Origin: Bacilli bacterium | Lineage (GTDB): Bacteria > Bacillota_I > Bacilli_A > ML615J-28 > CAG-313 | Assembly (NCBI GenBank): GCA_017463365.1 | Contig: JAFTPH010000038.1 | Span: forward strand, 329-64,328 | Reading direction: 5' to 3' | DNA: 64,000 nucleotides | In this document: piece after piece, positions 26,711 through 45,975 of the stretch | How the letters are laid out: each line of letters begins with the position of its first letter | Numbering within the stretch: the first letter of the stretch is position 1 | The notes under the pieces: generated by a model | Database searches by the model: none | Seen by the model: only the letters and a program-made list of their open reading frames with translations | Told to the model about the DNA's origin: nothing | Made by a program: the position numbers and the translations under genes

Positions 26711-27667
26711 TTATCCCTCCATCAAAACCTTAGTTTTTGATAAATAGTAAGCTCCAATTATTGGATCTTGTTCATCAATTAATAAATTAAATGATAAATT
26801 CTTCTCTTTTAACATTTTATCAACATTTTCTGGAATTATCTTATTATTCTTAAATAATCCCCCTTTAAAGCCCAAAATTGAGCCATTTTCGATGTTTTGC
26901 TTATTAACTAGTCTAATTATTCCATCTACAATTAAAGATGCTTCATTTTTCATAATGGTTAAAGCTTCTTCATCGCCATTTAAAGCAGCGGTTGAAATAA
27001 TAGATGCGAAAGAGGCAATTTCTCCTTTTGTTCTTAAATAAAAGATTGATTTAAGTTTAAATGGATCATTTATTTCAAAAGCTGATAAAAGTTTCTTATC
27101 TAGTTCAAGTAAAGCCATACTATGTTCAAAACGCATTATTAGTCTTTGACATGCATGGTGAACAAGTGAATAGGCACTACCATATTCACCAATAATATGC
27201 CCCCATCCGCCAATTAACTGTGTTTTACTATTTTTCATCCCACAGATTGCACTACCAGTTCCACCAAGAACTAAAATGCCTTCTTTTTCCTTATGATTAA
27301 TAATATCACTATAACTTTGACAAGTAACCGCGTATAACGCGATAATGGCATCATTCACAATATATACGGGACAATTAAACTTTTCTTTAAATTTTCTTTC
27401 AAGTGGCACAACATCAGGATGAACTCCCAAGCCACTTATTCCCATTGTAATATTTTTAAACTCATAAAGTTCATCAAATTTCTTAAATATTTCTTTTAAA
27501 GCTTTATCAATTGATAAGAACTCTAAATCTTTAGTAATGGCAGGACTACCAACTCCAATTAAAGATGTATTTAGAATAACACCATCTAAATCATAAATAT
27601 TAATTCTTGTTTTTGTTCCTCCCGCATCAATACATACCAAAACTGGTATTTTATTATTACTCTTCAT
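26711..27667 (-). CDS. BadF/BadG/BcrA/BcrD-type sugar kinase (MurK/NagK-like GlcNAc/MurNAc kinase)
   Basis: IDAGGTKT, VNDA, GGTGS and GGWGHIIGEYGSA motifs; lies within the mur operon. Confidence 0.82.
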   Translation of the reverse strand: MKSNNKIPVLVCIDAGGTKTRINIYDLDGVILNTSLIGVGSPAITKDLEFLSIDKALKEIFKKFDELYEFKNITMGISGLGVHPDVVPLERKFKEKFNCPVYIVNDAIIALYAVTCQSYSDIINHKEKEGILVLGGTGSAICGMKNSKTQLIGGWGHIIGEYGSAYSLVHHACQRLIMRFEHSMALLELDKKLLSAFEINDPFKLKSIFYLRTKGEIASFASIISTAALNGDEEALTIMKNEASLIVDGIIRLVNKQNIENGSILGFKGGLFKNNKIIPENVDKMLKEKNLSFNLLIDEQDPIIGAYYLSKTKVLMEG

Positions 27668-28712
27668 CCTTTTTCCCTTCAATCATAAAACTAAATTTTG
27701 TACCTGGTTTTAAAAGATTTAATAAATCATAGCCATATTCTGGAACATATCCAATAACATTGGCTTCTTCACACTCAACATCTCTCATCCAGATACCAAC
27801 TTCACCCATATATCTTAAGTTTAATTTGTTATCAACTGTAACTTGATATTTTTTAATTTTACCATTATTTTTAGGTTCAATATCAACTTTACTTCTTGTA
27901 CTTGATCTAATTAAATATGGACTTTGATCTGGTCTTGAGTGATGTGGGCCATTTAAAATTTTTAAAACATTTAGTGGCACATCTTCAGTTAGAACAAGTG
28001 GTATTTGAATACAATCTGCTGTACAACTAATCATTTCTAAGATTTCTTCTTCTGTTGAATATGCATCACCAATACCAATTTCATCAATACCAGTCATTAT
28101 TAATTCTTGCGTACTAATATAAGTTGGTTTGTAACGATGAGCTTCAATACTTGGAACTCCTTTATATAAAGGAGGACGCTTATTAATTAAGGAAGGAATA
28201 AACGCCATTGTGGTAAAACCTAATTCATGGAATACCATATTTTTTTGAATTAACTCATAAATATCTAAACCAGTAAATGGTTTGGGATAAAAATTATAAC
28301 TCATTCTTGTTTTTTTAGGATTTAAGCCTTTTTCTAACAATTTAACAAGTTTTTCAATCGAAATTGTTGAAGCATTAAGTTCAATATTACAATCTAATGT
28401 ATTAGACAACTCAACAATATCATCATCATTAAATCCCCAGTCAAGTCTTAACGCATAAGTACATTTAGGAATAACAAAGTTTTCCATCATTGGTTTAGAG
28501 ACATCAATAATTAGCTGCATACCATTTTTTTCAATAACACTTGCTAATTTATCAATTTCTTCTTGAATGTTGCCAGCCTCCGGAATATGAGCGGAAGTAA
28601 ACACTAATTTTATTCCCAGGTTTGCACACTCATTTAAGTATTCAAAGTTTTTTTCAATTGGGTAATCTTTTAACCCTTCATATACGGAAACAGCAAATTT
28701 TGTTTTTTTCAT
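27657..28712 (-). CDS. mupG: MupG (DUF871) 6-phospho-N-acetylmuramidase
   Basis: SVY, FTSAHIPE, LRLDWG, ELNAST, NFYPKPFTGL and PSIEAHR motifs. Confidence 0.88.
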   Translation of the reverse strand: MKKTKFAVSVYEGLKDYPIEKNFEYLNECANLGIKLVFTSAHIPEAGNIQEEIDKLASVIEKNGMQLIIDVSKPMMENFVIPKCTYALRLDWGFNDDDIVELSNTLDCNIELNASTISIEKLVKLLEKGLNPKKTRMSYNFYPKPFTGLDIYELIQKNMVFHELGFTTMAFIPSLINKRPPLYKGVPSIEAHRYKPTYISTQELIMTGIDEIGIGDAYSTEEEILEMISCTADCIQIPLVLTEDVPLNVLKILNGPHHSRPDQSPYLIRSSTRSKVDIEPKNNGKIKKYQVTVDNKLNLRYMGEVGIWMRDVECEEANVIGYVPEYGYDLLNLLKPGTKFSFMIEGKKDEE

Positions 28713-28719
28713 AAAACCT

Positions 28720-29865
28720 CTAGTAAATTAAATATTCTTTTCTAATATTCTTAAATTCAGCTTCATCTTTATCAAGAAGAGCCCATTCTTCTTCAAGGGT
28801 ATAAGTCATATCACGAATATAATCACATCCTGTTTCAAATTCAAACATACATGGACGTCCTTCTACGTATGGCGCATTAATCTTGAAGTGTTCAGGGTAA
28901 TTTTCTCTAATAACTTTAAGAATTGCCCAACTTGTTTTAATAGAATGACAAGCATTGCGGTCAGTTATATGTAAATATACTCCACCACATAATTCTCCTG
29001 CGTATTTTGAGAAAGTAGGCGTAAAGTATTGTGGTCTAAAATATACTCCTGGTAAATTTAATTCATTTAATTGGCGAGATAAAACCTCACTCTTCATCCA
29101 TGGAGCACCAAATAATTCAAATGGAGTTGTTGTTCCGCGTCCTTCAGCGACATTTGTTCCTTCTAATACACAAGTAATATTATAAGCATAAGCCGTATTA
29201 ATTGTTGGGAAGTTTGGAGAAGGAATAACCCAAGGAAGTGAAGTATCTTCAAAACTCATTGAACGTTCATAATTAAGCATTGGTATAACTTCTAAATCAC
29301 AACCAATTTTATATTCTTTATTAAATAATAAAGCTAGTTCTCCAATTGTTAAACCATGACGTTGTGGCATTGGATAATATCCAACAAATGAGCGATATTT
29401 TAAATCTAAAATATTTCCCTCAACTTTTTCACAATTAACTGGATTTGGTCGATCAAATACCACAAATTTTTTTCCATATTCTTTACAAGCTTGCATACAA
29501 TAAGCCATTGTATAGATAAATGTGTAATAACGAGAACCAACATCTTGAATATCAATTGTCATCACATCTACCGCATCCATCATTTCTTTAGTTGGTCTGC
29601 GAGTTTTTCCATATAAACTATATACAGTAATTCCTGTTTCATCATCAATATATGTTTCTAAATGTTGCCCTGCTTGAATAGATGCACGAACACCATGTTC
29701 AGGTGAGAATAAACCCACTAAATTAGTTTGTTCACGTAAGATATCAATACTGCTTTTAAAGTTCCCATCGATACCTGTTGGATTAGTAATTAACCCAATT
29801 CGTTTATTTTCAAATATATTTTTAAATTCACTTACTCTTTCAATACCTAAAATAGTTCTACTCAT
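28720..29865 (-). CDS. namZ: Exo-beta-N-acetylmuramidase NamZ (DUF1343)
   Basis: GLITNPTG, FSPEHG, SLYG, DIQDVGSRYYT, DRPNP, PSPN and EGRGT motifs; no signal peptide. Confidence 0.92.
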   Translation of the reverse strand: MSRTILGIERVSEFKNIFENKRIGLITNPTGIDGNFKSSIDILREQTNLVGLFSPEHGVRASIQAGQHLETYIDDETGITVYSLYGKTRRPTKEMMDAVDVMTIDIQDVGSRYYTFIYTMAYCMQACKEYGKKFVVFDRPNPVNCEKVEGNILDLKYRSFVGYYPMPQRHGLTIGELALLFNKEYKIGCDLEVIPMLNYERSMSFEDTSLPWVIPSPNFPTINTAYAYNITCVLEGTNVAEGRGTTTPFELFGAPWMKSEVLSRQLNELNLPGVYFRPQYFTPTFSKYAGELCGGVYLHITDRNACHSIKTSWAILKVIRENYPEHFKINAPYVEGRPCMFEFETGCDYIRDMTYTLEEEWALLDKDEAEFKNIRKEYLIY

Positions 29866-30532
29866 TTTCTTCTTCCTCCTCGTCTACTTGACGCATAATT
29901 TTTTCAAAATCAATTTTATTTAAACGGTAATATAATGGTTCGCAAACCTTTATTACTAAAAATGCCGGTCCACTTAACCCTACTAAAAACCAAATTGGGG
30001 CCGCAACAATTCCCACAATTGAAATAACAAATAACACTAAAGCAATTAAAGTAATTCCAATATATCTAAAAGCAATAAACATTGAAGTTTTTAATAACTC
30101 TTTAGTTCTTAAAGTTTTAAAAGTCACTATTAGTAGTGGAATATGTAAAACCATGATAACTATGATAACAATAAAAATAAACATAATCCAAAAACCAATA
30201 TTTGATAATAACTCTCCCGGAGCAATCTTACCATAGTAATACCACATACTAATTCCGGCAATTACTAAGATTATCCCAATCACAAGTTCCATGATAAAAC
30301 TTTTTTCCGAGTATTTCATAAAATTACTGAAATACATTCTTATTGGTTTATTAGGTCCTTCTGTAATAGAATCTTTTATTGTTGCGTACATCGCAGTAAT
30401 GGCCGGTAAAATTGTTATAATTGGAATTAATAATAAAATTGTCATAATATTGACAAATACTAACATAAACAACCATTCAAAAAAACGATGGGCTTTACTA
30501 TTATATTTTCTTTCAATATCCAAGAAAATCAC
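29858..30532 (-). CDS. YesL/DUF624-family membrane protein
   Basis: Multi-pass membrane protein with ILPAITAMY and FSNFMK pattern. The true start may be the TTG at 30523. Confidence 0.7.
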   Translation of the reverse strand: MIFLDIERKYNSKAHRFFEWLFMLVFVNIMTILLLIPIITILPAITAMYATIKDSITEGPNKPIRMYFSNFMKYSEKSFIMELVIGIILVIAGISMWYYYGKIAPGELLSNIGFWIMFIFIVIIVIMVLHIPLLIVTFKTLRTKELLKTSMFIAFRYIGITLIALVLFVISIVGIVAAPIWFLVGLSGPAFLVIKVCEPLYYRLNKIDFEKIMRQVDEEEEENE

Positions 30533-30589
30533 TCCTTTTTATCATATATATTTTACCATATTTTAGATTTAAAATAAAGTTATAGCATA

Positions 30590-30633: not shown

Positions 30634-30645
30634 AAATTTCATAAA

Positions 30646-32286
30646 TTATCCTGCTAATAAAGCATCTAATTCTTTTTGATAAATATCTTGTAATGAACTT
30701 AATACTACAGATGGAGTCTTATCTCCTTTAGAGTTAACAATTAAGCTTGATGATTGAGGATAAATACCATATTCACCATAGTGAGATCCATCACCTAAAC
30801 TCATTGAAACTACACCGATCATTTCGAAATAAGTTAATCCTTCAGTAGTTTGAACATCCATGATTGCAGCTACAGATTCTGCAGAGTCAATTCTAGCTTC
30901 TAAGTAAGCTTGATATTTTTCATCTGGAGATAATGCTGTTGATTTAGATTCAGGTTTTAAACCATTTGTTAAATCATCAAAGATGTTGAATAAGATAGCA
31001 GAACTTAATCCGTTTTCTCCGTTTTCAACGCTACGAATAGCATACATACCTTCATATCCAATAGGAATTTGATATGTATCTAAGTTAACATCGTCATCGT
31101 TTCTTGGATAAGGAACAGCTGAAATTGAGAAGTCTAAAGTAGCTGGCCAACGTTCAGCATTTCCATAGAACCACATACCACCAGTTTGGAATAATACTAA
31201 TCCATCTTTGAAGTTAGTAGTTGAAACTGTTGATCCGTTTGGTTCCCAATATAAGTTTTCAATTTCTTGTAAATCAGAGAATACATCAATTACAGTTTGG
31301 CTTGTTAATAATACACGACCATTTTTAATGAATGCTCCACCACGTGCTGCAACTAAACCTTTAGCAACATCGAAGTAGTCTCCACCAAATGCCCATTTTT
31401 CACCTTTTTCTTTTTCAGCATCAAATAAAGCTTGAGCTTGAGCTAATAAATCTTTAAATGCGCTCCATGTCCATTCATTATTGTTCCATAATGTAGCTGG
31501 ATCTGGTAAGTTATATTGGTCAATTAAGTCTTGATTATAGTGTAACCAGTGGTCAGGACGAGCTTCACCACTTGCATAAGCATAAACTTTACTATTGTAT
31601 TGTCCCATTAAATTATAGTTATTAGATTGTTCATAGTTATAATCTGTGAAAATACCAGTTTCACGTTTAGTATTATATAATTCAGCGATAGCACTATTTC
31701 TAGCAAGAGTTGGAACCCAGCTAGAGTCAATTAAGAAGATATCACCAACATCAGTACCATTTAAAACACCTGTGAAGATCCATTTAACACGTTCAGGTCC
31801 CCAAGGAGCTTCAGCTGGATAATCTTTATAAACGATATCGATATTATATTCAGATTCAATTTTAGCGATTAATTGACGTTTTTCAGTTTTTCTTTCTCCA
31901 CTATAGTTTGCATCGTTAGGGTCATATTCACTTACTGGTAAAACCATAATTTCGATTTCCATACCTTTTCCGTCCCAATCGTCTTTGTTATATTCCCAGT
32001 TCCAAGTTTCTGGGTCTAAGCAAAGTTCATTTTCACGGTCTAATGCGCAGTTAACGTCAGTAGGATTTATACCTGAGTCTCCTCCTTGATAATTTGGATC
32101 TTTAGCATCACAAACAGTACATTTTCCATCTTTAAATGTATGTCCATCTTTACATTTATCAGTTACTTGTGTACCACTACCACCGTCAGGATTATCTGGA
32201 GTTTCTTCTCCACCACCACATGCTGTTAACGCAAAAATTCCAAATAACATTACAACTGCTAATAAGAAATATTTTTTAAGTTTCAT
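30646..32286 (-). CDS. Carbohydrate ABC substrate-binding lipoprotein
   Basis: Lipobox LTAC, YNQDLI..YNLPDP..LW...EWTW and VPYP (SBP family 1/8 pattern); has its own promoter and terminator. Confidence 0.85.
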   Translation of the reverse strand: MKLKKYFLLAVVMLFGIFALTACGGGEETPDNPDGGSGTQVTDKCKDGHTFKDGKCTVCDAKDPNYQGGDSGINPTDVNCALDRENELCLDPETWNWEYNKDDWDGKGMEIEIMVLPVSEYDPNDANYSGERKTEKRQLIAKIESEYNIDIVYKDYPAEAPWGPERVKWIFTGVLNGTDVGDIFLIDSSWVPTLARNSAIAELYNTKRETGIFTDYNYEQSNNYNLMGQYNSKVYAYASGEARPDHWLHYNQDLIDQYNLPDPATLWNNNEWTWSAFKDLLAQAQALFDAEKEKGEKWAFGGDYFDVAKGLVAARGGAFIKNGRVLLTSQTVIDVFSDLQEIENLYWEPNGSTVSTTNFKDGLVLFQTGGMWFYGNAERWPATLDFSISAVPYPRNDDDVNLDTYQIPIGYEGMYAIRSVENGENGLSSAILFNIFDDLTNGLKPESKSTALSPDEKYQAYLEARIDSAESVAAIMDVQTTEGLTYFEMIGVVSMSLGDGSHYGEYGIYPQSSSLIVNSKGDKTPSVVLSSLQDIYQKELDALLAG

Positions 32287-32428: not shown

Positions 32429-33415
32429 TTACTTATTTTGGCAAATTATTTCTTTTTGTGTATAAGTATAAGATTTCCATATTTCAAAACCATAATTACG
32501 ATAAATATGCATAAGGTTTGTCCAATCAATAATGATATCAGCCACACCTTTATCAATTAATTCATTAATTATACTTTTCAATATGTTATTCGCAATATTT
32601 CTTCTTCGGTAATTTATATCTACCCCAAGCGGCCCAATTCCCCCGATTTTTTCGAAACGACCATGAAAATTCAAACTATAACTAGTAAGAATAGTTGGAG
32701 TATTATAATCACAAAATTTGCAAAAACCAACAACATTTTCTAATTCATCAATACAGATCATATATTCATAACCTGTTCCACCCTTTTCCACATAATCAAG
32801 GAATTCAATATGCCATCTACCAGGCCAATTGTTTTTAATAAGGACATCTATTTTTGATAAATCATTAATGTTAGCTCTTCTAATTTGATAATTTTTTCCA
32901 TCTTTAAATGGTTTAAGCATTTCTTTTTTAGTATCAACCGTTACATGTTTTACTAAATCGTTAGTATCATATCCTAAAGTATAACCTCTTTTACTAAACC
33001 AATCACGATAATACTTAAGATCTGTCGGAAGTCCAGGAAAAAAGTTAAAGTAATCACGACCTAGATTAATAACTTCTTTGTTTTGTTTTTCAAAAATTTC
33101 CTCAACTAAATTAAGTAGTTTACTACCGATTCCTTGATTTCTAAATCCAGGCATTACATAGATTAAACTAATCCAACCACTCTTTTCATATGTGGGCAAA
33201 TCATAATCTTTTTCCCATATTTTTCCAATTATAAAACCAACTGGTTGATTATTAATTAAACATACAAACGATGAATCTAATACTTTGTCACCATATGAAA
33301 AAACATTTTTTTCAAACAATTTTTTAGTTATGGGGAATATAAAACCTAGTTCTTTATTCCACATTTCGTATAACAAATTATACTCTTTAAAATCTCTTAA
33401 TTTAACAATATTCAT
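32429..33415 (-). CDS. Tandem-domain GNAT acetyltransferase (GlmA-like glucosaminide N-acetyltransferase candidate)
   Basis: Two acetyl-CoA motifs (FRNQGIGSKLL and GPLGV...RRRNIA), FFPGLP and IIDWT...YRNYGF. Confidence 0.75.
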   Translation of the reverse strand: MNIVKLRDFKEYNLLYEMWNKELGFIFPITKKLFEKNVFSYGDKVLDSSFVCLINNQPVGFIIGKIWEKDYDLPTYEKSGWISLIYVMPGFRNQGIGSKLLNLVEEIFEKQNKEVINLGRDYFNFFPGLPTDLKYYRDWFSKRGYTLGYDTNDLVKHVTVDTKKEMLKPFKDGKNYQIRRANINDLSKIDVLIKNNWPGRWHIEFLDYVEKGGTGYEYMICIDELENVVGFCKFCDYNTPTILTSYSLNFHGRFEKIGGIGPLGVDINYRRRNIANNILKSIINELIDKGVADIIIDWTNLMHIYRNYGFEIWKSYTYTQKEIICQNK

Positions 33416-33552: not shown

Positions 33553-36500
33553 TTATTTTTTCTTTAAAACTACTAATACAACAGCACCAACGCTTGCTAA
33601 TGCAGCAACACCAGCTAATACTGTAGCAACAACTACTAATGTATTATCAGCTGCAGCATCTGTAGCACCTTGAACACCGTCTTTGATTTGATCTTGACCA
33701 GCGATAACTTCGTCTTTAGATCCGTCAACTTTATCGCTTACAGCTTCTTCACTATCTTTAACAGCAGTATTAACGTCTTCGATAGCATCTAAAACTTCAT
33801 CAAGAACAACTTCTTGTTCATTAACAGTTACTGTGTATTCAACTTCTCTTGAGTTACCACTCTTATCCATTGCAGAAACTTTTACAGTGTATTCACCTGG
33901 TTTGTAGCAGTTAACTGTATCTTGTTCAGCAGCGAATGCGAAGTAGTCAGCTTCGAATAAGTTACCTTCAACGTTATCATATGCGAAGTAGATACCATCT
34001 AAGTAATGGAAGTCTTCACCATAGTTGATAGTAACATCACGAGCTTGTAATACTGGAGCAACAGTGTCAACAAATTTAACAACTGCAGTTTCAGTAACAG
34101 CTTTTCTTCCGTTTCTGTTATAAACAGTCATTTCAACTGGGAATTCACCACTAACTACACCACTTGCTAATGCAGCGTCTAATTCAGGGCAAACGAAGTT
34201 GATTTGAGAAGAGATGTCATTACCTTTAATTCCGCAAGATTCACTATAAACTCTATCATATGCAGTAGCGATAGTTCTTACATTGAATGTAGAAGGATCA
34301 GTAACATATAATTGAGCAGCGTTAACTTCAATAATTGGAGTTACGTCATAAACGTCTTCAACAGCAACAAATTCTAAATCAATTGTAGAAGATAATCCTA
34401 AGATAGGGCTCTTAACGTTTACAGTTACATAAGTAACATCGTTAATAACTGTGCTTACAGGTAATACATAATCTTCATATTTAGTTGGAACTGGGTATCC
34501 AGCAGCTTCTTCTGGAGTTACAGGACCATAACTTGCATGAGTCTTACCTTGACAGTAATTTTTGAACATTACTGAGTAAGTTCCCCAAGGAGATGCCCAT
34601 AAATCGTTACCTTTTCTAATTCTTGTAAAGTAGTTAATAGCACTTTCCCATTTAACAGCAACATCTTTATCAGTTAAGAATGGTTGGAATGTAGATGCAC
34701 CAGCTAAACCAGTATAGTAACCAGCATAGTCTTTTGCAGTAGCAGATGAGTGCATGAATAATTGAACATTAGCACATTGTGCAGTAGTAACAGTTCCTTT
34801 TTCAATTAAGAAGTTATAGAAATCAGTAAAGAATGCAGTTAAGAATTCATCTTTATTCTTATATGGAGATTTAAATACTTCTAATTTACCATCAACAGTT
34901 ACGTTATATTCTAATGCGATTTCATCAGCATATTCATTTGCTTTCCATTCTTCAAATACTTTTTCAGCTCTTTCTTTAGCAACTGCAGTGATATTAGCTT
35001 CAACTTCATTTACAGTTTTTTCATATTCAGCATAGTATCCAGTAGCAGCTTTAGATTCATCTTCTTTAGTATTTTTGTCATCAACAATAGTAGGGTTACC
35101 TAATTCAGCAACTGCAGCATCATATTTAGCTTGAGCTTCTTCAACAGCTTTGCAAGCTTTAGCGTAGTCAGCATCACCAGCTAAGTATTTAGCGATATAA
35201 GCAACTCTATCAGCTTCAGCTTCTTCTAATGCTAAGTATAATCCAGTAGCAGCTTCTTTATCAGTTTTTGCAGCACCTAATTCAGCTTTTGCATCAACAA
35301 CAGCTTTCTCAGCAGCTAACATTTGTTCTTTTAATGAAACTGTATTTTCTAAGCATTCTTCAACATAGTCATGCATTGCGATGTTAGCGATATTTAAGTC
35401 AACTAATAAGTCGATGAATTCGTTAACAACTGCAGCATATTCAGGAGCGAATGTATCATTAGAATCAACTTTAAATGCAGCAACTAATGCAGCGCGTGCA
35501 GTTTCTTCATCAGCAGTTCCAATTGCAGCGATGAATGCAGCTTTAGCAGCTTGTAATTCAGCATTTGCAAAAGTGATCTTCCAATCTTCAAATACTTTAT
35601 CTTGTTCAGCTTTAACAGCAACATCAGCAATAGTAATACCTTCATTACCTAAACCTAATGCAACATATGAAGTTAAGATAGCTAATTGTGCATCATGAGC
35701 AGCTTTAGCATCACTTAATGAAGTATTATAACCTTGATATTGTAATGTATCTCTATGAGAAATAGTTGATGCTTCATAAGCAGTTTTAGCAATTTCATAT
35801 GCTTTTTCTAATTTAGCGATTTCTGCTTTCTTATCTTCGATTGCAGCTTCAGCTAATTCGATAGTCTTTAATAATTGTTTATATTCGTTAACAATAGTAT
35901 CTTTTTCAGATGCTAAGATAGCTTGTTCAGCAGCATCTTCTAAAGCAACTTTGTTAGCTTTAGCGTTATCTAATGCAGTTTTTGCATCAGCAACAGCTTG
36001 TTTTAATCCAGCTTCTTTTGCAGCTTGTTCATCTAACCATGATTGGTAAGTTTCATAAGCAACTTCTTCTCTTAATAAAGCTTTTTCAGCTTCAACAAAT
36101 GCAGCTTTTTTAGCAGCAAAATCATCTTCAGTCATAACTGAACTTGTGAATGAGAATGGGTCATTTTCATCAGTGAAGCAGTAAGAAACACCAGTTAAAT
36201 CAATTAATTTATCGAAATCGATTTGAGTTCCTGCAACAACTTCAATTGTATTAGTTCCTTCAATTAATGATAATCCCATACCATCTAATACTGTATCAGT
36301 ATATTCGATATCGCTTGCAGCATAGTTATGGCATTTTACAGTTTGAGCATATCCTTCTTCACGACCATATAAATAAGCTTGTGCTTGAACTTCTTTATAT
36401 AAAGGTAATAAAGTAGATGTTCTTTCTAAGTAACCGAATTTGTATAATAAACCACCAGCAGGGATAACAGTAGCGTTGAATGGAGCACGAACACCATCTG

Positions 36501-37521: not shown

Positions 37522-37569
37522 TTTCTTTTTTCCTCCTAATAGAATGTATTTGAAAGTGTTTGCGGTTAT

Positions 37570-37598
37570 ATTATAGCACAAACGTTTTGATTTGGCAA
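37570..37598 (-). promoter_or_regulatory. Promoter of the large surface protein gene
   Basis: TTGCCA-17 bp-TATAAT with TG extension; AAACGTTT palindromic core in the spacer. Confidence 0.55.
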
Positions 37599-37734
37599 GC
37601 ATTTTATTATAAATTAACTAAGAATATTTTCGTTTTTTCTAAGTTTACTCAAATTCATACTGATTTTTTTAACAAAAATGCCGCTTTTTCAAACAATATA
37701 ACACACAATTATTTCCACTTATTACCAAATTTAA

Positions 37735-38475
37735 TTAATTTTGTTCAGCATATTTAGAATATGCATCTTCATCTACAACAATAGTAACATCTTCATGTCT
37801 ATAAAGAACACTTGCAGGGAAATCTGTTGTAACTTCACCACTTAATAATTTTACAACAGTATCAGCTTTTCCTTTACCACTAATTAACATTAAAATTGAT
37901 TTAGCTTGCATAATGTTTTTAATACCCATCGTTACCGCATGAGTAGGAACTTCATCAATACTATTGAAGAAACGTTTATTATCTTCTCTAGTTCTTTCGG
38001 CAAGTGTAACTACAAATGTTTCTTGTTCAAATGATGTACCTGGTTCATTAAATCCAATATGACCATTTCCACCAATACCAAGTAATTGAATATCAATTGA
38101 TGCCTTTTTTAATGCTTCATTGTATGCATTACATTGAGCTTGAATTTCACTTTCAGTTCCTCTTGCACTTGGAATGTGAACATTTTCTTCTTTAATATCA
38201 ACGTGATTGAATAAATTATCATGCATAAAGCAATAGTAGCTTTGTGGATGATCAATGCTAATACCACAATATTCATCTAAATTGTAAGTTTTAACATCTT
38301 TGAAGCTCACTTCTTTATTATTGTATGCTTCAATAATTTTTTGGTACGTACCAATTGGGCTACTTCCTGTTGCAAGCCCTAAAGTAGAACGAGGATTTTT
38401 CTTAACTTGTTCAATTAAGATATCTGCTGCTACTTTACTCATTTCATCATAGTTTTTTGTAACGATTACTTTCAT
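37735..38475 (-). CDS. nagB: Glucosamine-6-phosphate deaminase
   Basis: LGLATGSSP, NLDEY, LGIGGNGHIGFNEPG and TMGI motifs. Confidence 0.97.
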   Translation of the reverse strand: MKVIVTKNYDEMSKVAADILIEQVKKNPRSTLGLATGSSPIGTYQKIIEAYNNKEVSFKDVKTYNLDEYCGISIDHPQSYYCFMHDNLFNHVDIKEENVHIPSARGTESEIQAQCNAYNEALKKASIDIQLLGIGGNGHIGFNEPGTSFEQETFVVTLAERTREDNKRFFNSIDEVPTHAVTMGIKNIMQAKSILMLISGKGKADTVVKLLSGEVTTDFPASVLYRHEDVTIVVDEDAYSKYAEQN

Positions 38476-38476: not shown

Positions 38477-40042
38477 TTATACCTCCTTAATTGTCACTGG
38501 AATTTTTCCTTTAGCTTCTGCACTACCAGTTAGCACTTTTGATAGTGATTTAAAAGCTAGTGGTGTAGCTTCATAACTACATACATATGTTGAAATATTT
38601 TCTAATACGCCATAATCATATGGTGTTCTAATCGCAACTACAATTAATTTATTTTTATCTAATGAATTTATTAAATTTGCTTGTTCTGGATTAAAGCACG
38701 CATTATAGCTACAATATACTATTTTATCATATTCTGTTTGTTTTTTCAACAATAATTCTTTTTCTTCTTCACTTGGTGATAATGGCATATATATTTTATC
38801 ACAAGCAAAAGGCATAAATTCCGCTAGTGACATAAGTCCCATTTCATCATTTTCAACTAAAGTTACTACTTGTATTTGAGGGAAAACAATTAGTGTTTTC
38901 TCTTCTTTTTTAATAGGTAATAATTTCTTGTTATCTTCTATTAAGGTAATACTATCTAAACTTACCGCTTCACTAAATGCAACCGCTTCTTCATTGCATA
39001 ATTCTTTTTCAATATCTTCGAATGAATCAGCCATTGGTCTAATGAATTGTTCTTTATATTTTAAAATTCTTTCTACTGCTTCATCAATTTTTGTAAGAGG
39101 AATTCTCCCTTCTTTAGCAAGTCTTACAGCAGTATCATAAAAATCTTTTTGAAGATTAATATCGCGAGCTCCACATAGAAGCAAAATATCATCTCCAGAA
39201 TTAAAGCCATTTTCAACAATTTCTTCAATTGTAAAATTATTGAAAACCGCCTTCATTGTTAATGAATCAGTTACAACTAATCCATCATATCCAATTTCAT
39301 CTCTTAATAACCCTTGAACTACTTTTTTTGATAAAGTAGATGGATACTTATCATCATATTTTGTAAATAATACATGACTTACCATTATACCTGGCAAATT
39401 AAGTTCTTTAGCTTTAATAAATGGTTTTAATTCCATTTCATATAAACGTTTTTCATCAAAATCAACAACCGGTAAACCAACGTGAGAGTCAACCGCTGTA
39501 TCTCCATGTCCAGGGAAATGTTTAATTGAAGACATCATTAAGGCATCACTATAACCATTAACTGCTTCAACTACATATTCTGATACAATATCAGGGTTTT
39601 CTGAATAAGATCTTACATTAATAACTGGGTTTTTAGGGTTATTATTAATATCACCTACTGGTGCAAAATTAAAGTTAAACCCCAACATTTGAAGTTCTCG
39701 ACCCATATTGTATGCAAGTTTATATGCATTTTTAGGATTACCTGTTGCACTTATTGGCATTGCTCCAGGTGATTGAGTAACTCCTTCAGTAACACGCGCT
39801 ACCATTCCTCCTTCTTGGTCTAAACTCACAAATGGAGGGATTTTAGCATTCTTATAAATTTCTTTATTAAGGTTGAAGATTTGTGCAGGACTTGCACAAT
39901 TATCTTTAAAATAAATTACAAGTCCCACTTTCATATCTTCAATTTGCATTTTTAATTCTGAATTATAATCTGTACCTTTAAAAGCAAAACCAATCATTTG
40001 ACCAATTTTTTCTTCTAAAGTCATTTTTTTAATATCAAACAT
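38477..40042 (-). CDS. nagZ: GH3 beta-N-acetylglucosaminidase
   Basis: DQEGG, NagZ signature KHFPGHGDTAVDSH and TDSL.M; no signal peptide. Confidence 0.9.
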   Translation of the reverse strand: MFDIKKMTLEEKIGQMIGFAFKGTDYNSELKMQIEDMKVGLVIYFKDNCASPAQIFNLNKEIYKNAKIPPFVSLDQEGGMVARVTEGVTQSPGAMPISATGNPKNAYKLAYNMGRELQMLGFNFNFAPVGDINNNPKNPVINVRSYSENPDIVSEYVVEAVNGYSDALMMSSIKHFPGHGDTAVDSHVGLPVVDFDEKRLYEMELKPFIKAKELNLPGIMVSHVLFTKYDDKYPSTLSKKVVQGLLRDEIGYDGLVVTDSLTMKAVFNNFTIEEIVENGFNSGDDILLLCGARDINLQKDFYDTAVRLAKEGRIPLTKIDEAVERILKYKEQFIRPMADSFEDIEKELCNEEAVAFSEAVSLDSITLIEDNKKLLPIKKEEKTLIVFPQIQVVTLVENDEMGLMSLAEFMPFACDKIYMPLSPSEEEKELLLKKQTEYDKIVYCSYNACFNPEQANLINSLDKNKLIVVAIRTPYDYGVLENISTYVCSYEATPLAFKSLSKVLTGSAEAKGKIPVTIKEV

Positions 40043-40048: not shown

Positions 40049-42031
40049 TTATCTCTTCTTTTTTAAAACAATTAATCCTAAAGAAGCCATTGTAATTAAA
40101 CCAGTAACTACTAAAGCTAAATCTTTCTTACATCCAGAATCATTTGTTCCTGGATCAGTTGGGTTATCTGAAGTTCCTGGATCAACTGGTGTATTTTCAG
40201 CTTTTGGAATAGATCCAGCCGCATAAACTAATTTTGCAAGTTCTACAACTTTTCCATTAGTAAGCTCTGCCATTAATACAAATTCATTTTCAACAGTTGT
40301 ATCAGCAACGTTTACTGAAACTTTTCCTGATAATCCTTCAACTAATGTTTCAACATCACCATTCTTAACATACATCTTGCTGACAACCGCATTATCATCT
40401 TTGACACGATATTTGAATGTAACTACACCTTCTTCTAATTTTGATTCTTCAAAATCTTTTAATTCAGGGAAGGCATAATCTTCAGTTTTTAATGTATATG
40501 TATGGCTTGTTCCTTTATCAATTGTTCCATCTTTATTTAAAATTTCATATGAATAACTTACACTATATTCCATATTTGGAATTAAACCAGTAACTGTTAC
40601 TTCATTACCTGTCATTTCATATTCTTTACCATCTACATTTAAAGTAACATTTTGTAATGTTCCATCAACAACTTCGCCAGTTTTCTTTAGAGTAATAGAA
40701 TTTCCAACTGGTTCTTGAACTTGTAATTTAGGGTCTTTCATAACAAGTAATACCGCATTACCTGTACTTCTTAATACACCCCAAGGTTGACCTGTTTGAC
40801 GTGCATCAGATGGGTCATTAATTAAAGTCATTTCTCCGTTAATTCTTGCCATTAATGTTGATGATCCACCACCATCAAGGTTATATCCTTCAACACATCC
40901 AGCAAGTCTTAATAATTCACCACATTGGAATAATGATGCACCTTCTAGGTTATCTCCCACACTTCCACGTCCATCAATAACCATTAAAACGATACTTCCA
41001 TCTTCTTTAAATCCAACTAAAGTACGTGGATGAGTTGTATTAATAAATAATGCATTGTCGTTATTAGCTGATGTTGTATTTGCATATTGTGGTTGTCCGT
41101 CTTTTAATACTTGATAGATAAATCCAACCGCATTTTCAATGCCAGCAAGTTCACCTGCTAAGTTATATTCAACTTTAACATTTGCACCTGCAGTTAAAAC
41201 TTCTGATTTAGCTGCAACATAGAATTTACCAGCTTCAACACTTGATAAACTTGTAACATCTGCTTTACCAGTAATAGTTCCTTTTAAGAAGTACCCACCA
41301 CTATAATCACGATATTTTGTGTATGTCCCTTCATATACAACATATCCAGATAAATTAACATTTTCACCTAATTTTTTAGTATAAACGTTTACTCCGGATT
41401 CACTTGGAGTTTTATTTGTTCCAGCAACTGTTAATGTTTCAACAGTTTTTCCATTTTGTAGCACTTCTAAAGACATGTTTGATTCTCTTTGTTGACCAAA
41501 TACAGCAACGTGATCTTTATTAGTTTCTCCAAATCCTAATACACCACGGTAACTTCCACCTGGTGCTTTAGCACGTAATACGTCACCTTCTTGAACATGG
41601 AAGTTTGTAGGTTCTCCAGTTCCTCCAGCAGAGTTATCAAAGAAGTCTCCATTTACCGCACCAACAACGATATATCCTGGGTGAGTAGTTTCATAATCTT
41701 GAATTGTACGATCTAAGTTTGTGGCTTTCCAGTTTTCAGCTCCCCCAACACTCCATACAACTGGTTTTACAGCACTTTCTTCACCTACCGTTAACCATTG
41801 AACAGTATGGTTATTCCATAATGGAGTACCTTCCATAGCTCCATTATATACCGTTGAAATTTGTTGTTTTGTAAGTTCTACTTGTCCTTCTAATTTCCAA
41901 TTTTGCGCTTCGTTTATTTCTTTAGCATATCTTGATAAATCTTTTGGAGTATATGCAGAAACATTTAGAAGTGGCAATATAAAAGCAAATAACAGTAATA
42001 ATATTATTTTTTTAGTTTGTATTTTTTTCAT
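40049..42031 (-). CDS. Surface phosphodiester glycosidase (NAGPA/DUF2233 family), paralog 1
   Basis: Signal peptide, AVNGDFF, HPRTLVG, VIDGR and NLDGGGSS motifs; C-terminal SGCKKD-TM-KKKR. Confidence 0.85.
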   Translation of the reverse strand: MKKIQTKKIILLLLFAFILPLLNVSAYTPKDLSRYAKEINEAQNWKLEGQVELTKQQISTVYNGAMEGTPLWNNHTVQWLTVGEESAVKPVVWSVGGAENWKATNLDRTIQDYETTHPGYIVVGAVNGDFFDNSAGGTGEPTNFHVQEGDVLRAKAPGGSYRGVLGFGETNKDHVAVFGQQRESNMSLEVLQNGKTVETLTVAGTNKTPSESGVNVYTKKLGENVNLSGYVVYEGTYTKYRDYSGGYFLKGTITGKADVTSLSSVEAGKFYVAAKSEVLTAGANVKVEYNLAGELAGIENAVGFIYQVLKDGQPQYANTTSANNDNALFINTTHPRTLVGFKEDGSIVLMVIDGRGSVGDNLEGASLFQCGELLRLAGCVEGYNLDGGGSSTLMARINGEMTLINDPSDARQTGQPWGVLRSTGNAVLLVMKDPKLQVQEPVGNSITLKKTGEVVDGTLQNVTLNVDGKEYEMTGNEVTVTGLIPNMEYSVSYSYEILNKDGTIDKGTSHTYTLKTEDYAFPELKDFEESKLEEGVVTFKYRVKDDNAVVSKMYVKNGDVETLVEGLSGKVSVNVADTTVENEFVLMAELTNGKVVELAKLVYAAGSIPKAENTPVDPGTSDNPTDPGTNDSGCKKDLALVVTGLITMASLGLIVLKKKR

Positions 42032-42056
42032 GCGATTTTTTCCTCCCATTTAGGAA

Positions 42057-44012
42057 CTATTTTTTCTTTCTAAATAATGCAAGCAAACTTGCTAGTGATA
42101 TTAGACTAACCACAAGTAACGCAGCTTCTTTTTTACATCCTGATGTACTATCATCAGTAGGATTTTCAACTTTTCCTTCTTCATCACTTGGAGTTTTATC
42201 TAAAGCTGGAATTGTGTTGGCTTCATATTTAATTACTCCAAGTTCAACGACATCACCATTTGAAAGTTCTGCCATTAATTTAAATTCATTTTCAATTTCA
42301 GTATCTATTTCTTCAATTTTAATTCTACCAGATAATCCTTCTAATGCAATTTCTTTTGAACCATGTTTAATAAATACACGTTTTACATCTTCTTCTTCAG
42401 CATCAACTTTATATTTTAAAGTTACTGTTCCTTTATCTAATTTATGCTCTACAAATTCTTTTAATTCAGGGAAGGCATAATCTTCAGTAGTTCGATAGAA
42501 TGTCTCACTTATACCATGATCAACACTACCATCATCATTAACAATATCATATTCATAAGTAATTTCATATTCAGTAGCTTTATCTAAACCAGTAATTGTT
42601 AATTCATCACCAGTTAAATCGTAAGTTTTATTATCGATATTAACTTTAATATTTTCTAATCTACCATCTACAACTTCACCAGTTCTCTTAACTGTAATAG
42701 TATTACCTACCGCTTCTTCAACTTCAATCTTAGGGTCTTTCATAACTAAAAGAATCGCATTACCAATACCTCTTAATGTTCCCCAAGGTTGCCCTGTTTG
42801 ACGTGCATCAGATGGGTCATTAATTAATGTTAATTCGCCATTAATTCTTGCCATCATAGTTGATGATCCACCACCATCAAGGTTATATCCTTCAACACAT
42901 CCAGCAAGTCTTAATAATTCACCACATTGGAATAATGTTGCACCTTCTAGATTTTCAGATACCGAACCACGTCCATCGATAACCATTAATACAACACTAC
43001 CATCGGCTTTAAATCCAACTAATGTACGTGGATTTAATGTTGTGAAATATCCATCCATAACTTTTGGACTAATATTTTGGAACATTGGAAGAGAGTTATT
43101 CAAACATGGATAGCAATATCCAACAACATTTTCCGCTCCCACAACACTTCCTGTTAAGTTATATTCAACTTTAACTTCTTCATCTACATTTAATGTAACT
43201 GATTTAGTTGCGATATAGAATGTTCCACTTGGAACATTTGATAAACTTGTAATATTTTCAACTCCCAAAACTTTACCTTTCGCGAAGTATCCACCACGAT
43301 AATCACGATATAAAGTTGTTGAAACTTTATAAACTGTATAACCAGTTAAATCAACTGTTTTACTTAAATGTTTAGTATATACATAAACTCCATCAGCACC
43401 AGGTGCTACATTAGTAGCTGACACTTCAGCAAGTTCAGTTGTTGCTTCATCGGTAATCTTTTTTAAGTACATTGATGCGCTTTTTGATGGTAGACCAACT
43501 AAATGACTCTTACTACTTACAAAACCAATAACACCCCAGTTTGGATCACCATCCCAAGCTGCTCTCAAAACATCTCCTTCTTGAACGTGATAATTTAATG
43601 GTTCTTGAGTAGTATTAATATAGAAGAAATCTCCATTTACTGCCCCAATTACAATATAACCCGGATGAGTTTCTTCATAATTCTTAGCTGTTTTTAATAC
43701 ATTTGATGCTTTCCATTCCTCAACACTACCATCACTCCAAACTACCGTTTGAACAGCTGTGTTTTCTTTTGGAACACTTAGCCATTGAACTGTATGATTA
43801 TTCCATACTGCATCTTTTGTCACACCATTATAAATAGTGGTAATTTGTTGTTTAGTAAGTTCAACGCTACCATTTAAAACCCATTCTTGTTTTTCGGTTA
43901 ATTCTTTCGCATATTGAGATAATTGTCTACCTTCATATGCTTTTATTGTTAGGAAAGGAATAATTCCTACAATCATCAAAATAAATACGAATTTTTTAAA
44001 TCCACTTAACAT
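42057..44012 (-). CDS. Surface phosphodiester glycosidase, paralog 2
   Basis: AVNGDFF, NPRTLVG, VIDGR and NLDGGGSS motifs; C-terminal SGCKKE-TM-RKKK. Confidence 0.85.
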   Translation of the reverse strand: MLSGFKKFVFILMIVGIIPFLTIKAYEGRQLSQYAKELTEKQEWVLNGSVELTKQQITTIYNGVTKDAVWNNHTVQWLSVPKENTAVQTVVWSDGSVEEWKASNVLKTAKNYEETHPGYIVIGAVNGDFFYINTTQEPLNYHVQEGDVLRAAWDGDPNWGVIGFVSSKSHLVGLPSKSASMYLKKITDEATTELAEVSATNVAPGADGVYVYTKHLSKTVDLTGYTVYKVSTTLYRDYRGGYFAKGKVLGVENITSLSNVPSGTFYIATKSVTLNVDEEVKVEYNLTGSVVGAENVVGYCYPCLNNSLPMFQNISPKVMDGYFTTLNPRTLVGFKADGSVVLMVIDGRGSVSENLEGATLFQCGELLRLAGCVEGYNLDGGGSSTMMARINGELTLINDPSDARQTGQPWGTLRGIGNAILLVMKDPKIEVEEAVGNTITVKRTGEVVDGRLENIKVNIDNKTYDLTGDELTITGLDKATEYEITYEYDIVNDDGSVDHGISETFYRTTEDYAFPELKEFVEHKLDKGTVTLKYKVDAEEEDVKRVFIKHGSKEIALEGLSGRIKIEEIDTEIENEFKLMAELSNGDVVELGVIKYEANTIPALDKTPSDEEGKVENPTDDSTSGCKKEAALLVVSLISLASLLALFRKKK

Positions 44013-44028
44013 ATTTATTCTCCTTATA

Positions 44029-45975
44029 TTATTTTCTCTTTTTTGCTAAAACCAATAACCCTGTAAGTCCAATTAAGCTAATTACTATGTGACTTACTTC
44101 TTTTTTACAACCTGTTTTGTTTTCTTCAGGGTTAATATCAACAACTGAATCATCAACTTCCTCATTATCAAGTGATGGAATAGTTGATGCTTCATATGTA
44201 ATACTTCCCATTTCAAATTCTAATCCATTATTTAATTCAACTACTAGAGTAAAAATATTTTTCACTAAAGTATCAATATTTTCTATTTTAACTTTTCCTG
44301 ATGTTCTTTCAAGTTCAATTTTATTGCTGCCATATTTTATATATATTTTCGCCAAATCTTCTTTGTCAACATCAACTTTATATTTTAAAGTAACTTCAGC
44401 AATATCCACTGATGCTTCCACAAATTCTTCTAAAACTGGCATTACATAATCTTCTGTTGTTCGATAGTATTTTTCTGTAATTCCATGAACAATACTTCCA
44501 TCAGGATTTTTAATATCATATTCAATTGTAAATCCGTATTCCGAATTTTTATCTAAACCAGTAATTTCAAGTTTATCACTTGTCATATCATATGTTTTAT
44601 TATCAAAAATTACTTTAATATTTTCCATTGTTCCATCAACAACTGGTGCTTTTTGTTCAATTGTAATTGAATTACCAATAGCTGCTGGAATATTAAAATT
44701 AGGGTTTCTCATTACTAATAATATTGCGTTACCAACTTTTCTAGTACTTCCATCGGTTGGATTATTAACTAACGTTAGGCGGCCATTTATTCTTGCAGCA
44801 AGAGTTGCTGAACCACCACCATCAAGATTGAACCCATCAACACATCCCATTATTTTTAATAATTCTCCCGTTTGGAAAAGAGTTGTTCCTTCTTTATTAT
44901 TAGCAGGACCTCCTGATCCATCAACGGTCATTAATACAATGCTGCCATCTTCTTTAAAACCAATAGCGGCTCTTGTATAAGTTTTAGTTAAGTATCCCCC
45001 TAAAACACTTGTTGGTAAGTTTTGACCTAAAGTATTACCATCTTTTAAACATTGATATATATATCCAATAACATTTTTAGCACCTGCTGTGCCACCCGTT
45101 AAGTTATATTCTACTTTTATTTCTTCATCTACATTTAAAGTTACTGATTTAGTTGCAATATAGAATGTTCCACTTGGAACACTGCTTAAATTAGTAACAT
45201 TTTCAACACCAGCAACTTTACCTTTTACAAAATAACCATCATTATATTTACGATATAAAGAGGTAATCCCTTTATATACTGTATAACCAGTTAAATCAAT
45301 TGTTCCACTTAATTCTTTTGTAAACACAAATACTCCATCGCCTGTTGGTTGAGTATTAGTACTTGTAACTGCTGATAAATCGACTGTCTCATTATCAGTA
45401 ATCTTTTTTAAATACATTGAGTCACTTTTAGTTGGATTACCTGTTACATATTCACCATTATCTTTAAATCCTAGTAATCCAAAATTTAAATCATCTGTAT
45501 AATATGATGCTCTTAAAACATCACCTTCTTGAACATGGTAATTACATGGTTCATATGTCTTACCATTTAATTCTGTTTCTTTATTATAATAGAAATCTCC
45601 ATTAATGGCAGCCACCACAATATAACCTGGGTTTTGTTTTTCGTAGTCAGCAGCCATTTCTAAAACTGTTTTAGGAGCCCAATTTTCTAATGAACCAGTA
45701 CTCCATACTACTGGGAAAATATCGGTATTTTCACTTGGTGTAGTTACCCATTGAACTGTGTGATTATTCCAAGCGGTTTTATCCGAGATTACCCCGTTAA
45801 ATACAGTTGATATTTGTTGTTCTCTTACCTCAACGCCTCCTTCAACAATTTGCTTTTCAGCTTCGTTTATTTCCTTCGCATATTGAGATAAATATTTCGG
45901 GGTATAAGCTGAAACACTGAGGATTGGGAAGAGGAAGAAAACAATAAGCAAAAATACTATTTTTTTTACTTTCAC
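44029..45975 (-). CDS. Surface phosphodiester glycosidase, paralog 3
   Basis: AINGDFY, TRAAIG, TVDGS and NLDGGGSA motifs; C-terminal TGCKKE-TM-KKRK. Confidence 0.85.
   Translation of the reverse strand: MKVKKIVFLLIVFFLFPILSVSAYTPKYLSQYAKEINEAEKQIVEGGVEVREQQISTVFNGVISDKTAWNNHTVQWVTTPSENTDIFPVVWSTGSLENWAPKTVLEMAADYEKQNPGYIVVAAINGDFYYNKETELNGKTYEPCNYHVQEGDVLRASYYTDDLNFGLLGFKDNGEYVTGNPTKSDSMYLKKITDNETVDLSAVTSTNTQPTGDGVFVFTKELSGTIDLTGYTVYKGITSLYRKYNDGYFVKGKVAGVENVTNLSSVPSGTFYIATKSVTLNVDEEIKVEYNLTGGTAGAKNVIGYIYQCLKDGNTLGQNLPTSVLGGYLTKTYTRAAIGFKEDGSIVLMTVDGSGGPANNKEGTTLFQTGELLKIMGCVDGFNLDGGGSATLAARINGRLTLVNNPTDGSTRKVGNAILLVMRNPNFNIPAAIGNSITIEQKAPVVDGTMENIKVIFDNKTYDMTSDKLEITGLDKNSEYGFTIEYDIKNPDGSIVHGITEKYYRTTEDYVMPVLEEFVEASVDIAEVTLKYKVDVDKEDLAKIYIKYGSNKIELERTSGKVKIENIDTLVKNIFTLVVELNNGLEFEMGSITYEASTIPSLDNEEVDDSVVDINPEENKTGCKKEVSHIVISLIGLTGLLVLAKKRK

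Follow-up and report, generated by a model that had tools for sequence, protein, structure and literature searches.

We analysed a 64,000-nucleotide (nt) stretch of the genome of a Bacilli bacterium (GenBank assembly GCA_017463365.1, contig JAFTPH010000038.1, positions 329 to 64,328), here called the window, that encodes three surface proteins of the NAGPA (DUF2233) family together with a MupG-like protein of glycoside hydrolase (GH) family 170 that lies in an operon for the catabolism of N-acetylmuramic acid (MurNAc). Forty-five open reading frames (ORFs) of the window were scanned with Pfam, and NCBIfam models were run in addition. Every gene between 22 kb and 64 kb lies on the minus strand. 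Two units in this region are packed with gaps of no more than 24 nt, namely unit 1, from GH20 to nagB (62218 down to 37735), and unit 2, from DUF624 to an alpha/beta hydrolase (30532 down to 23883). The two units are separated by three more loosely spaced genes, with intergenic gaps of 113-142 nt, and a GHL10 gene (Pfam) precedes GH20. The original prediction made from this DNA held that three surface NAGPA genes lie directly upstream of nagZ-nagB, and that mupG is present in a window with no phosphotransferase system (PTS) gene. Both statements were borne out, in that the three genes (40049-45975) match the Pfam family and encode proteins with a signal peptide and an anchor, MupG_N and MupG_C are both recognized, and no PTS family was found by Pfam among the 45 ORFs. 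The prediction left out namZ (28720-29865), however, which is directly upstream of mupG. The cytoplasmic namZ-mupG-kinase-anmK-murQ operon (23883-30532) is located approximately 9 kb downstream of the NAGPA genes. The genes of the locus, in the order in which they would be transcribed, are as follows.

60395..62218, minus strand: GH20 beta-N-acetylhexosaminidase-like protein, first gene of unit 1 (Pfam Glyco_hydro_20 and 20b); without signal peptide; 1-nt gap to the next gene
57223..60393, minus strand: 1056-amino-acid (aa) membrane-anchored solute-binding protein (Pfam SBP_bac_8) of ATP-binding cassette (ABC) system 1; N-terminal hydrophobic segment
54833..57219, minus strand: two ABC permeases of system 1 (Pfam BPD_transp_1)
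52961..54829, minus strand: 622-aa NHL-repeat surface protein (Pfam NHL); signal peptide and C-terminal anchor; kept in the outgroup module
52314..52958, minus strand: Yip1-family membrane protein (Pfam); conserved module member
48867..52301, minus strand: 1144-aa membrane-anchored DUF5696 protein, candidate surface glycosidase (Pfam DUF5696, 475 bits)
46698..48879, minus strand: two ABC permeases of system 2 (Pfam BPD_transp_1)
45996..46673, minus strand: DUF624 membrane protein, ABC accessory (Pfam)
44029..45975, minus strand: NAGPA paralog 1 (PF09992, 89.8 bits, cut-off 25); signal peptide, core with DGGGS, stalk, GCKK and anchor
42057..44012, minus strand: NAGPA paralog 2 (PF09992, 89.5 bits, cut-off 25); architecture as paralog 1
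40049..42049, minus strand: NAGPA paralog 3 (PF09992, 97.2 bits, cut-off 25); architecture as paralog 1
38477..40042, minus strand: cytoplasmic GH3 NagZ, paralog GH3a (Pfam; NCBIfam NF003740 181 bits, under the cut-off of 207)
37735..38475, minus strand: nagB, glucosamine-6-phosphate deaminase (TIGR00502, 291 bits, cut-off 237)
33553..37602, minus strand: 1349-aa immunoglobulin (Ig)-like surface protein with C-terminal anchor (Pfam and topology); a large protein is found at the same place in relatives
32429..33415, minus strand: cytoplasmic double-GNAT acetyltransferase (Pfam); position kept in relatives
30646..32286, minus strand: 546-aa lipoprotein of no known family; lipobox-like N-terminus; homologs adjoin NAGPA in outgroup loci
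29858..30532, minus strand: DUF624/MusI-like membrane protein, first gene of the MurNAc operon (Pfam, NCBIfam)
28720..29865, minus strand: NamZ (GH171) exo-muramidase without signal peptide (Pfam NamZ_N 289 bits, NamZ_C 160 bits)
27657..28712, minus strand: MupG-like GH170, member of a long-branch ABC-type clade (Pfam MupG_N 174.8 bits, MupG_C 75 bits)
26711..27682, minus strand: BadF-type sugar kinase K1, MurK/NagK-like (PF01869, 70.5 bits)
25532..26710, minus strand: AnmK, anhydro-MurNAc kinase (NF007148, 442.3 bits, cut-off 387)
24616..25530, minus strand: MurQ, MurNAc-6-phosphate (MurNAc-6-P) etherase (TIGR00274, 364.8 bits, cut-off 302)
23883..24623, minus strand: alpha/beta hydrolase, candidate esterase (Pfam); conserved last gene of the operon

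NamZ, NagZ, MupG, K1, AnmK, MurQ and NagB are predicted from sequence to lack both a signal peptide and a membrane segment, and each of the three NAGPA proteins of the window has an N-terminal signal peptide, the motif NLDGGGS and a C-terminal membrane anchor. K1 resembles the solved MurNAc/N-acetylglucosamine (GlcNAc) kinase PDB 8zo3 (E 2.9e-16) and scores 80 bits with NCBIfam NagK_SO3507, far under the cut-off of 370. GH3a is the GH3 paralog found next to nagB in relatives; GH3b of the focal genome is on contig C38. What the sequences show directly is which genes are present, where their products are predicted to reside, how tightly the operons are packed, that no PTS is encoded, and that both modules are conserved in two orders. 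We regard it as very probable that the locus is a two-module, PTS-free system for scavenging amino-sugar glycans.

The absence of a PTS extends to the whole of the focal genome (G000; 1.74 Mb in 65 contigs, 97.4% complete), in which a profile search found no PTS_EIIC (PF02378), no enzyme I N-domain (PF05524) and no HPr (PF00381), in agreement with the original prediction that MupG is PTS-independent. A MurP-like EIIBC was sought in the rest of the genome and none was found, the one EIIC-like protein being a fusion, encoded on another contig, of a PTS_EIIC_2 domain (PF13303) with a GNAT domain. Because enzyme I and HPr are absent, this protein cannot phosphorylate. (The fusion protein, of 558 aa and 306 bits, is encoded on contig C58:277-1953, minus strand; its gene is divergently oriented beside two NAGPA paralogs, and could be a transporter that acetylates its own cargo.)

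We then compared genomes at three levels: the focal order (106 genomes, 67 of them high-quality, in two families, f1 and f2), a sample of the class (300 high-quality genomes, with MupG in 86, of which 53 are outside the focal order), and a public set of 80 loci around ABC-type-like MupG genes with flanks of 10 kb. Within the order, MupG is present in 84 of the 106 genomes (58 of the 67 high-quality ones) and AnmK in 87, and enzyme I was detected in two, both of which are without MupG. Outside the order, enzyme I accompanies MupG in 53 of 53 genomes, and NamZ does so in two. That MupG should be common and enzyme I nearly absent in this order, when in the genomes sampled elsewhere MupG always occurs with enzyme I, makes PTS-free GH170 a clean, lineage-wide exception. 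Among the public loci, EIIC was found in 33, NamZ without a PTS in 36, both in 3 and neither in 11. MupG without a PTS is thus a trait of the whole order, newly described here.

In both families the conserved core of the MurNAc operon is DUF624-NamZ-(NagZ-)MupG-K1-AnmK-MurQ-hydrolase, where NagZ is not always present; 36 of the 80 public loci show this operon with no PTS gene. GH3b is fused to MupG in most of f2 and in two genera of f1, and in one genus NagZ, MupG and the kinase form triple fusions of 1178-1185 aa. Neighbourhoods of the kinase, MupG and AnmK were tallied from gene coordinates across the 84 MupG-bearing genomes. K1 adjoins mupG in 56 of these, a K1-like gene is located elsewhere in 3, and 1 case is undetermined; in the other 24 no K1 was found, and in 21 of those mupG and anmK are direct neighbours, 16-141 nt apart. 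Conversely, genome G084 (assembled in 3 contigs) lacks both MupG and K1 but has NamZ-NagZ-AnmK-MurQ, as well as 7 NAGPA genes, and in an outgroup order three of the four MurNAc operons that could be seen in full (those of G198, G183 and G150, the fourth being that of G191) have K1 and no MupG. The kinase and MupG, then, are each found without the other. Moreover, G084 and three of the four outgroup operons have a complete pathway from which MupG is missing. MupG is therefore an optional addition to the ABC-fed NamZ/NagZ/kinase/AnmK/MurQ operon. (In a further genome of the order, an AnmK match at G072:C33:1531-2640 lies inside a 677-aa open frame, which suggests a K1-AnmK fusion.)

The NAGPA proteins have a different set of companions. 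The focal genome encodes six paralogs, three of them in the window, and 99 of the 106 order genomes, which are 1-2 Mb in size, have 1-10 copies each. In an alignment of 45 homologs the DGGGS loop (D392-S396) is invariant, as is R427 downstream of the loop, a possible counterpart of human R316; in the human enzyme, as reported in PMC13474241, DGGGS corresponds to D286-S290 and R316 is the phosphate-binding arginine. Sequence matches of paralog 3 to the structures 3ohg, 6pku and 6pky span only approximately residues 315-433. In the outgroup loci L139, L142 and L143, NAGPA genes are found amid genes for an RpiR protein, a lipoprotein like the 546-aa one, a large protein, DUF624, a large binding protein, permeases, NHL, Yip1 and DUF5696. 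This is a second copy of the uptake module, with homologs of the solute-binding protein, permeases, NHL, Yip1, DUF5696 and lipoprotein genes of the window itself. Across two orders, the constant partner of NAGPA is the ABC/DUF5696/NHL/Yip1 uptake module and not MupG/MurQ. This position beside the uptake module, taken together with the presence of NAGPA in genomes that lack MurQ, argues that NAGPA works with the ABC/DUF5696 module rather than with MurNAc catabolism.

A literature search turned up no substrate assigned to a bacterial NAGPA and no description of an enzyme that frees wall polymers at the MurNAc-phosphate link. NAGPA proteins of Bacillota have been reported as fusions to the wall-attacking domains TelC and NlpC/P60 (10.1101/2025.01.14.632903), as would fit a substrate related to the wall. 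The focal genome encodes two penicillin-binding proteins, and a profile search of it found no LytR-CpsA-Psr (LCP) ligase; the organism thus has a wall, though probably without LCP-anchored polymers of its own, and any wall-polymer substrate would therefore be foreign. Surface purple-acid-phosphatase-like enzymes are encoded in 97 of the 106 order genomes, some of them fused to NAGPA. In particular, surface proteins of approximately 1600 aa join NAGPA to a purple-acid-phosphatase/metallophosphatase in G084 (L022:12378-17192), G083, G103, G104, G049 and G052, an arrangement in which a single polypeptide may first uncover and then dephosphorylate, outside the cell. (We considered whether such fusions anticorrelate with MupG and dropped the idea, since four of the six genomes are without MupG (G084, G083, G103 and G052) and two have it (G104 and G049), numbers that are too few and not independent.)

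Ten ORFs of the focal genome, six of which are the NAGPA paralogs, share a C-terminal tail composed of G-C-K-K-[D/E], a hydrophobic helix and a K/R cluster. They are found in the window (40049-40231, 42057-42239, 44029-44211 and an edge ORF at 63660-63998) and on contigs C12, C38, C57, C58 and C62, and the tail is also present in the consensus of the 45 NAGPA homologs. No sorting-signal model of NCBIfam matches it; it may be an undescribed cysteine-containing C-terminal sorting or lipidation signal.

We propose the following roles for the two modules. In module 1, the three surface NAGPA proteins, the DUF5696 protein and the NHL protein would work with the two ABC importers, and cytoplasmic GH20, NagZ and NagB would act thereafter. 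NAGPA would strip alpha-GlcNAc from GlcNAc-1-phosphodiesters on foreign glycopolymers, and would thus belong functionally to the uptake module and not to MupG. In module 2, the cytoplasmic enzymes NamZ, GH170, the MurK-like kinase, AnmK, MurQ and the esterase-like hydrolase would convert muro-oligosaccharides to GlcNAc-6-phosphate and D-lactate, with MupG handling those MurNAc residues that NamZ cannot free, most likely 6-phosphorylated ones. The phosphate would be added inside the cell by a BadF-type kinase acting on the imported disaccharide; MurNAc-6-P left by NAGPA would be a second possible source. Taken whole, with its proposals for NAGPA, MupG and the kinase, this is the explanation we consider best, although we put its chances at somewhat below even.

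The origin of the phosphate is the point on which the explanations differ. We prefer, though only just, an intracellular BadF-type kinase to uncovering by NAGPA; the two are nearly equal in likelihood, and the choice is a tentative one that could well prove wrong. Counted in its favour is a second BadF kinase, K2, that is translationally coupled to a GH4 gene on contig C29 (L028:1402-3704, minus strand). The GH4 protein matches solved 6-phospho-beta-glucosidases (E 1e-114), and the GH4-K2 pair is adjacent in 4 of the 4 relatives in which both genes were found. A GH4 enzyme in a PTS-less cell without a plausible external source of its substrate implies that at least one kinase phosphorylates a glycoside, or else that the enzyme has changed; the pair thus shows that a PTS-less phospho-glycosidase alone does not demand an explanation through NAGPA. 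Several observations nevertheless weigh against our explanation. K1 is present in the MupG-less operons of G198, G183 and G150, and 24 of the 84 MupG-bearing genomes yielded no K1 ortholog, so that the MurK-like kinase, which the original prediction had raised as a possible supplier of the MupG substrate, is not specifically tied to MupG. In PTS-bearing Bacilli a BadF kinase follows mupG in 5 of 20 loci, 4 of them with a cellobiose-type EIIC/IIB/IIA there, which argues that the pairing predates loss of the PTS and is explained by phosphorylation of released GlcNAc. Furthermore, the kinase route would repeat the work of NamZ plus kinase. As for the independence of NAGPA from MurNAc catabolism, the G191 operon has a NAGPA gene between murQ and murR, and in at least 15 genomes of f1 mupG shares its contig with NAGPA genes at a distance of 12-47 kb. 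(Adjacency of MupG and the kinase, including the triple fusion, was dropped as support for the kinase as the source, given the adjacency in PTS-bearing genomes and the kinases that occur without MupG; it carries little weight either way.)

According to the original prediction the phosphate comes from NAGPA itself: surface NAGPA would cut the GlcNAc-1-phosphate (GlcNAc-1-P)-6-MurNAc anchor of foreign wall polymers, and the resulting MurNAc-6-P fragments would be imported by the ABC systems and passed through NagZ and MupG to MurQ. We think this doubtful, and equally doubtful the broader proposal that bacterial NAGPA/DUF2233 proteins are de-anchoring enzymes for teichoic acids and rhamnopolysaccharides, with ABC-type MupG clearing the MurNAc-6-P scars. 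The chemistry is suitable, in that NAGPA breaks the glycosidic C-O bond, so that the phosphate stays with the acceptor (as reported in PMC13474241), and DGGGS and the arginine at 427 are kept in the 45 homologs; with no LCP ligase in the focal genome, the substrates would be foreign. GH170 is elsewhere tied to the PTS (53 of 53 genomes, with EIIC beside mupG in 33 of the 80 loci), and the focal genome is PTS-free. MupG has been added to a pathway that already handles unphosphorylated fragments in full, which implies that it needs a substrate class of its own, and the independent occurrence of K1 and MupG points in the same direction. The outgroup offers a striking piece of support: of the four operons seen in full, only that of G191 has MupG, and only that of G191 has NAGPA. 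(The G191 genome has a PTS; its operon has no PTS gene.) This operon comprises a permease, an NHL-like protein, Yip1, DUF5696, two permeases, DUF624, NamZ, NagZ, MupG, K1, AnmK, MurQ, NAGPA and an RpiR regulator. Its MupG matches that of the window at E 1e-74, compared to 1e-18 to 2e-32 for 20 GH170 proteins from PTS-bearing genomes, and its NAGPA protein (486 aa) has a signal peptide, DGGGS and a membrane anchor. The sister operons of G198, G183 and G150 have the same backbone with neither gene. MupG and NAGPA occupy different places in the G191 operon, which makes two separate insertions or deletions in one lineage. But this is the evidence of a single lineage, and a search for related loci with the G191 operon NAGPA found none. 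Within the focal order, 83 of the 84 MupG-bearing genomes have NAGPA; against this, 16 of the 22 MupG-less genomes, including G084, retain NAGPA. The six order genomes that have neither NAGPA nor MupG are also without AnmK, which argues that NAGPA correlates with the whole lifestyle and not with MupG. NAGPA is present, too, in genomes without MurQ (G062, G103 and G089 in the order; G124, G162 and G371 in the outgroup), and in f2 its genes are found between pfk, cls and trmA. Nor do NAGPA and MupG form one unit: they belong to separate transcription units, the partner of NAGPA is the ABC/DUF5696 module, and in the 80 public loci no NAGPA gene turns up inside the 10-kb flanks of MupG, although for f1-type loci these flanks stop just where the NAGPA genes would start. 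The original prediction withstood two of the checks set for it, as no PTS was found and the kinase is not specifically coupled to MupG. The proposed pathway from NAGPA to MupG is thus supported in part: the PTS-free MupG and the G191 operon speak for it, and the genomes with NAGPA but no MurQ or MupG, together with the conserved neighbours of NAGPA elsewhere, speak against it. Two further points count against de-anchoring. The NAGPA-phosphatase fusions and the surface phosphatases of 97 of the 106 genomes suggest that phosphate may be removed outside the cell. Moreover, the substrate of the uncovering enzyme is a terminal GlcNAc, and the GlcNAc of the linkage unit bears the polymer. It is unlikely, in our view, that ABC-type MupG has instead shifted its specificity so as to need no 6-phosphate, acting as a second cytoplasmic exo-muramidase on a MurNAc variant that NamZ refuses (O-acetylated or peptide-bearing). 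A comparison of 20 GH170 sequences from PTS-bearing genomes with 8 from the focal order gives this idea some substance, since the order sequences fall into a clade on a long branch (approximately 1.0 substitutions per site, with support of 1.0 for the clade), some 25 positions that are 90-100% conserved in the 20 are changed or deleted in all 8, and two otherwise invariant arginines are retained in only 3 of the 8; the window MupG, moreover, matches solved DUF871 structures at only E 9e-27. Yet the family core (RLD, ExNxS, NFYP, ExHR, RxD, RS and YxGE) is retained, four other invariant arginines are still present, and the GH170 enzymes characterized or genetically assigned in PMC6262408 and PMC12791066 are all 6-phospho-glycosidases. 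(A structure search found no ligand-bound GH170 structure with which to place the phosphate site.) Finally, NAGPA might remodel the envelope of the producer, through a cycle of covering and uncovering like that of the mannose-6-phosphate pathway or through turnover of the cell's own wall polymers. Six membrane-anchored paralogs on the surface of an organism that has a wall (two penicillin-binding proteins), and the housekeeping neighbours in f2, would fit. Nevertheless we regard this as very improbable: the focal genome has no LCP ligase, a Stealth_CR2 search found no Stealth-type GlcNAc-1-P transferase (the control genomes were silent too), and in f1 and the outgroup the NAGPA genes sit in catabolic uptake operons.

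The locus shares parts with several described systems. In the MurP-MupG-MurQ pathway of Staphylococcus aureus, MurNAc-6-P-GlcNAc is cleaved to MurNAc-6-P and GlcNAc (Kluj et al. 2018, PMC6262408). As described there, GH170 is likewise encoded with MurQ, and the same chemistry is expected; the window differs in having no MurP or other PTS component, in its ABC import, in the presence of NamZ, AnmK and a kinase in the operon, and in its diverged GH170. The murQ-murR-murP-amiE-nagZ-namZ cluster of Bacillus subtilis (Mueller et al. 2021, PMC8054146) also combines NagZ and NamZ in an exo-lytic degradation of glycans that feeds MurQ. B. subtilis, however, secretes both NagZ and NamZ and takes up MurNAc through a PTS, whereas both enzymes of the window are without a signal peptide and MupG is present as well; according to that report, NamZ does not occur where a MupG-like protein is found. 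Salvage by NamZ1/NamZ2 in Tannerella forsythia (10.1101/2021.12.02.470905) resembles the window in the use of foreign peptidoglycan, GH171 exo-muramidases, the lack of a MurNAc PTS and host association, but that organism belongs to another phylum, its enzymes are periplasmic, and the abstract of the report mentions neither GH170 nor NAGPA. Vertebrate NAGPA, as described by Khan et al. (2026, PMC13474241), has in common with the window proteins the Pfam domain, DGGGS and a type I topology (signal peptide, core, stalk, membrane helix and short basic tail), and possibly also the conserved arginine downstream of the loop. Its stalk is EGF-like and that of the window proteins Ig-like, and identity of the latter to vertebrate NAGPA or to the Bacteroides ovatus DUF2233 structure 3OHG is below 30% over approximately 100 aligned residues. 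The chitobiose operon of Lacticaseibacillus paracasei with its ChbE (PMC12791066) shows that GH170 includes specificities besides MurNAc-6-P. There the partners are a cellobiose-type PTS and DUF3284, here MurQ, AnmK and NamZ; loci of the ChbE type make up 3 of the 20 sampled GH170 loci of PTS-bearing genomes.

The GH170 enzymes studied so far take a substrate made by a PTS, and here a whole order of small-genome Bacilli keeps GH170 without one. The presence of GH170 in an ABC-fed operon with NamZ, which MupG-like proteins reportedly exclude, points to a second, undescribed route of MurNAc catabolism and peptidoglycan scavenging. The locus bears also on the natural substrate of bacterial DUF2233/NAGPA proteins and on the enzymatic detachment of LCP-anchored polymers. 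Were de-anchoring to prove correct, a PTS-less, wall-scavenging lineage could fully digest decorated Gram-positive walls; were the kinase route to do so, the MurK family would gain a new disaccharide kinase activity. Either outcome would inform how bacteria feed on one another's walls.

Additional observations concern other genes of these genomes. The GH170 genes nearest to the clade of the order (L049/G172 and L050/G325) are divergent beside a gene for a 567-573-aa Glycos_transf_4 (MraY/TagO-like) protein in two genera, possibly a second link of GH170 to GlcNAc-1-P chemistry, or else chance synteny. In the Atlas, 16-24% of the members of DUF5696 protein clusters also match GH101 (endo-alpha-N-acetylgalactosaminidase), which is a lead only; DUF5696 may be an unrecognized glycoside hydrolase, and no paper on it turned up in a literature search. 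The 1349-aa surface protein had Ig-like matches only in an Atlas search, all below 0.8. At 13454-15601 and 18236-20674 the window encodes an Opp-type ABC ATPase (715 aa) and a binding protein (812 aa) with large insertions of a kind that is common in Mollicutes-like lineages. In many relatives (e.g. L012:934-4336 and L015:12784-16236) the MurNAc operon is trailed by genes for ETF-beta, ETF-alpha and an FAD-linked oxidase, which fits oxidation of the D-lactate freed by MurQ; downstream of the window operon none of these genes is present, and two ORFs of no known family (22199-23783) are followed there by trpS. Lastly, at 798-2627 the window encodes a surface protein with an atrophied Ig domain (aBig_2) and an N-acetylmuramoyl-L-alanine amidase domain, a candidate for an extracellular enzyme that strips peptides from foreign peptidoglycan.

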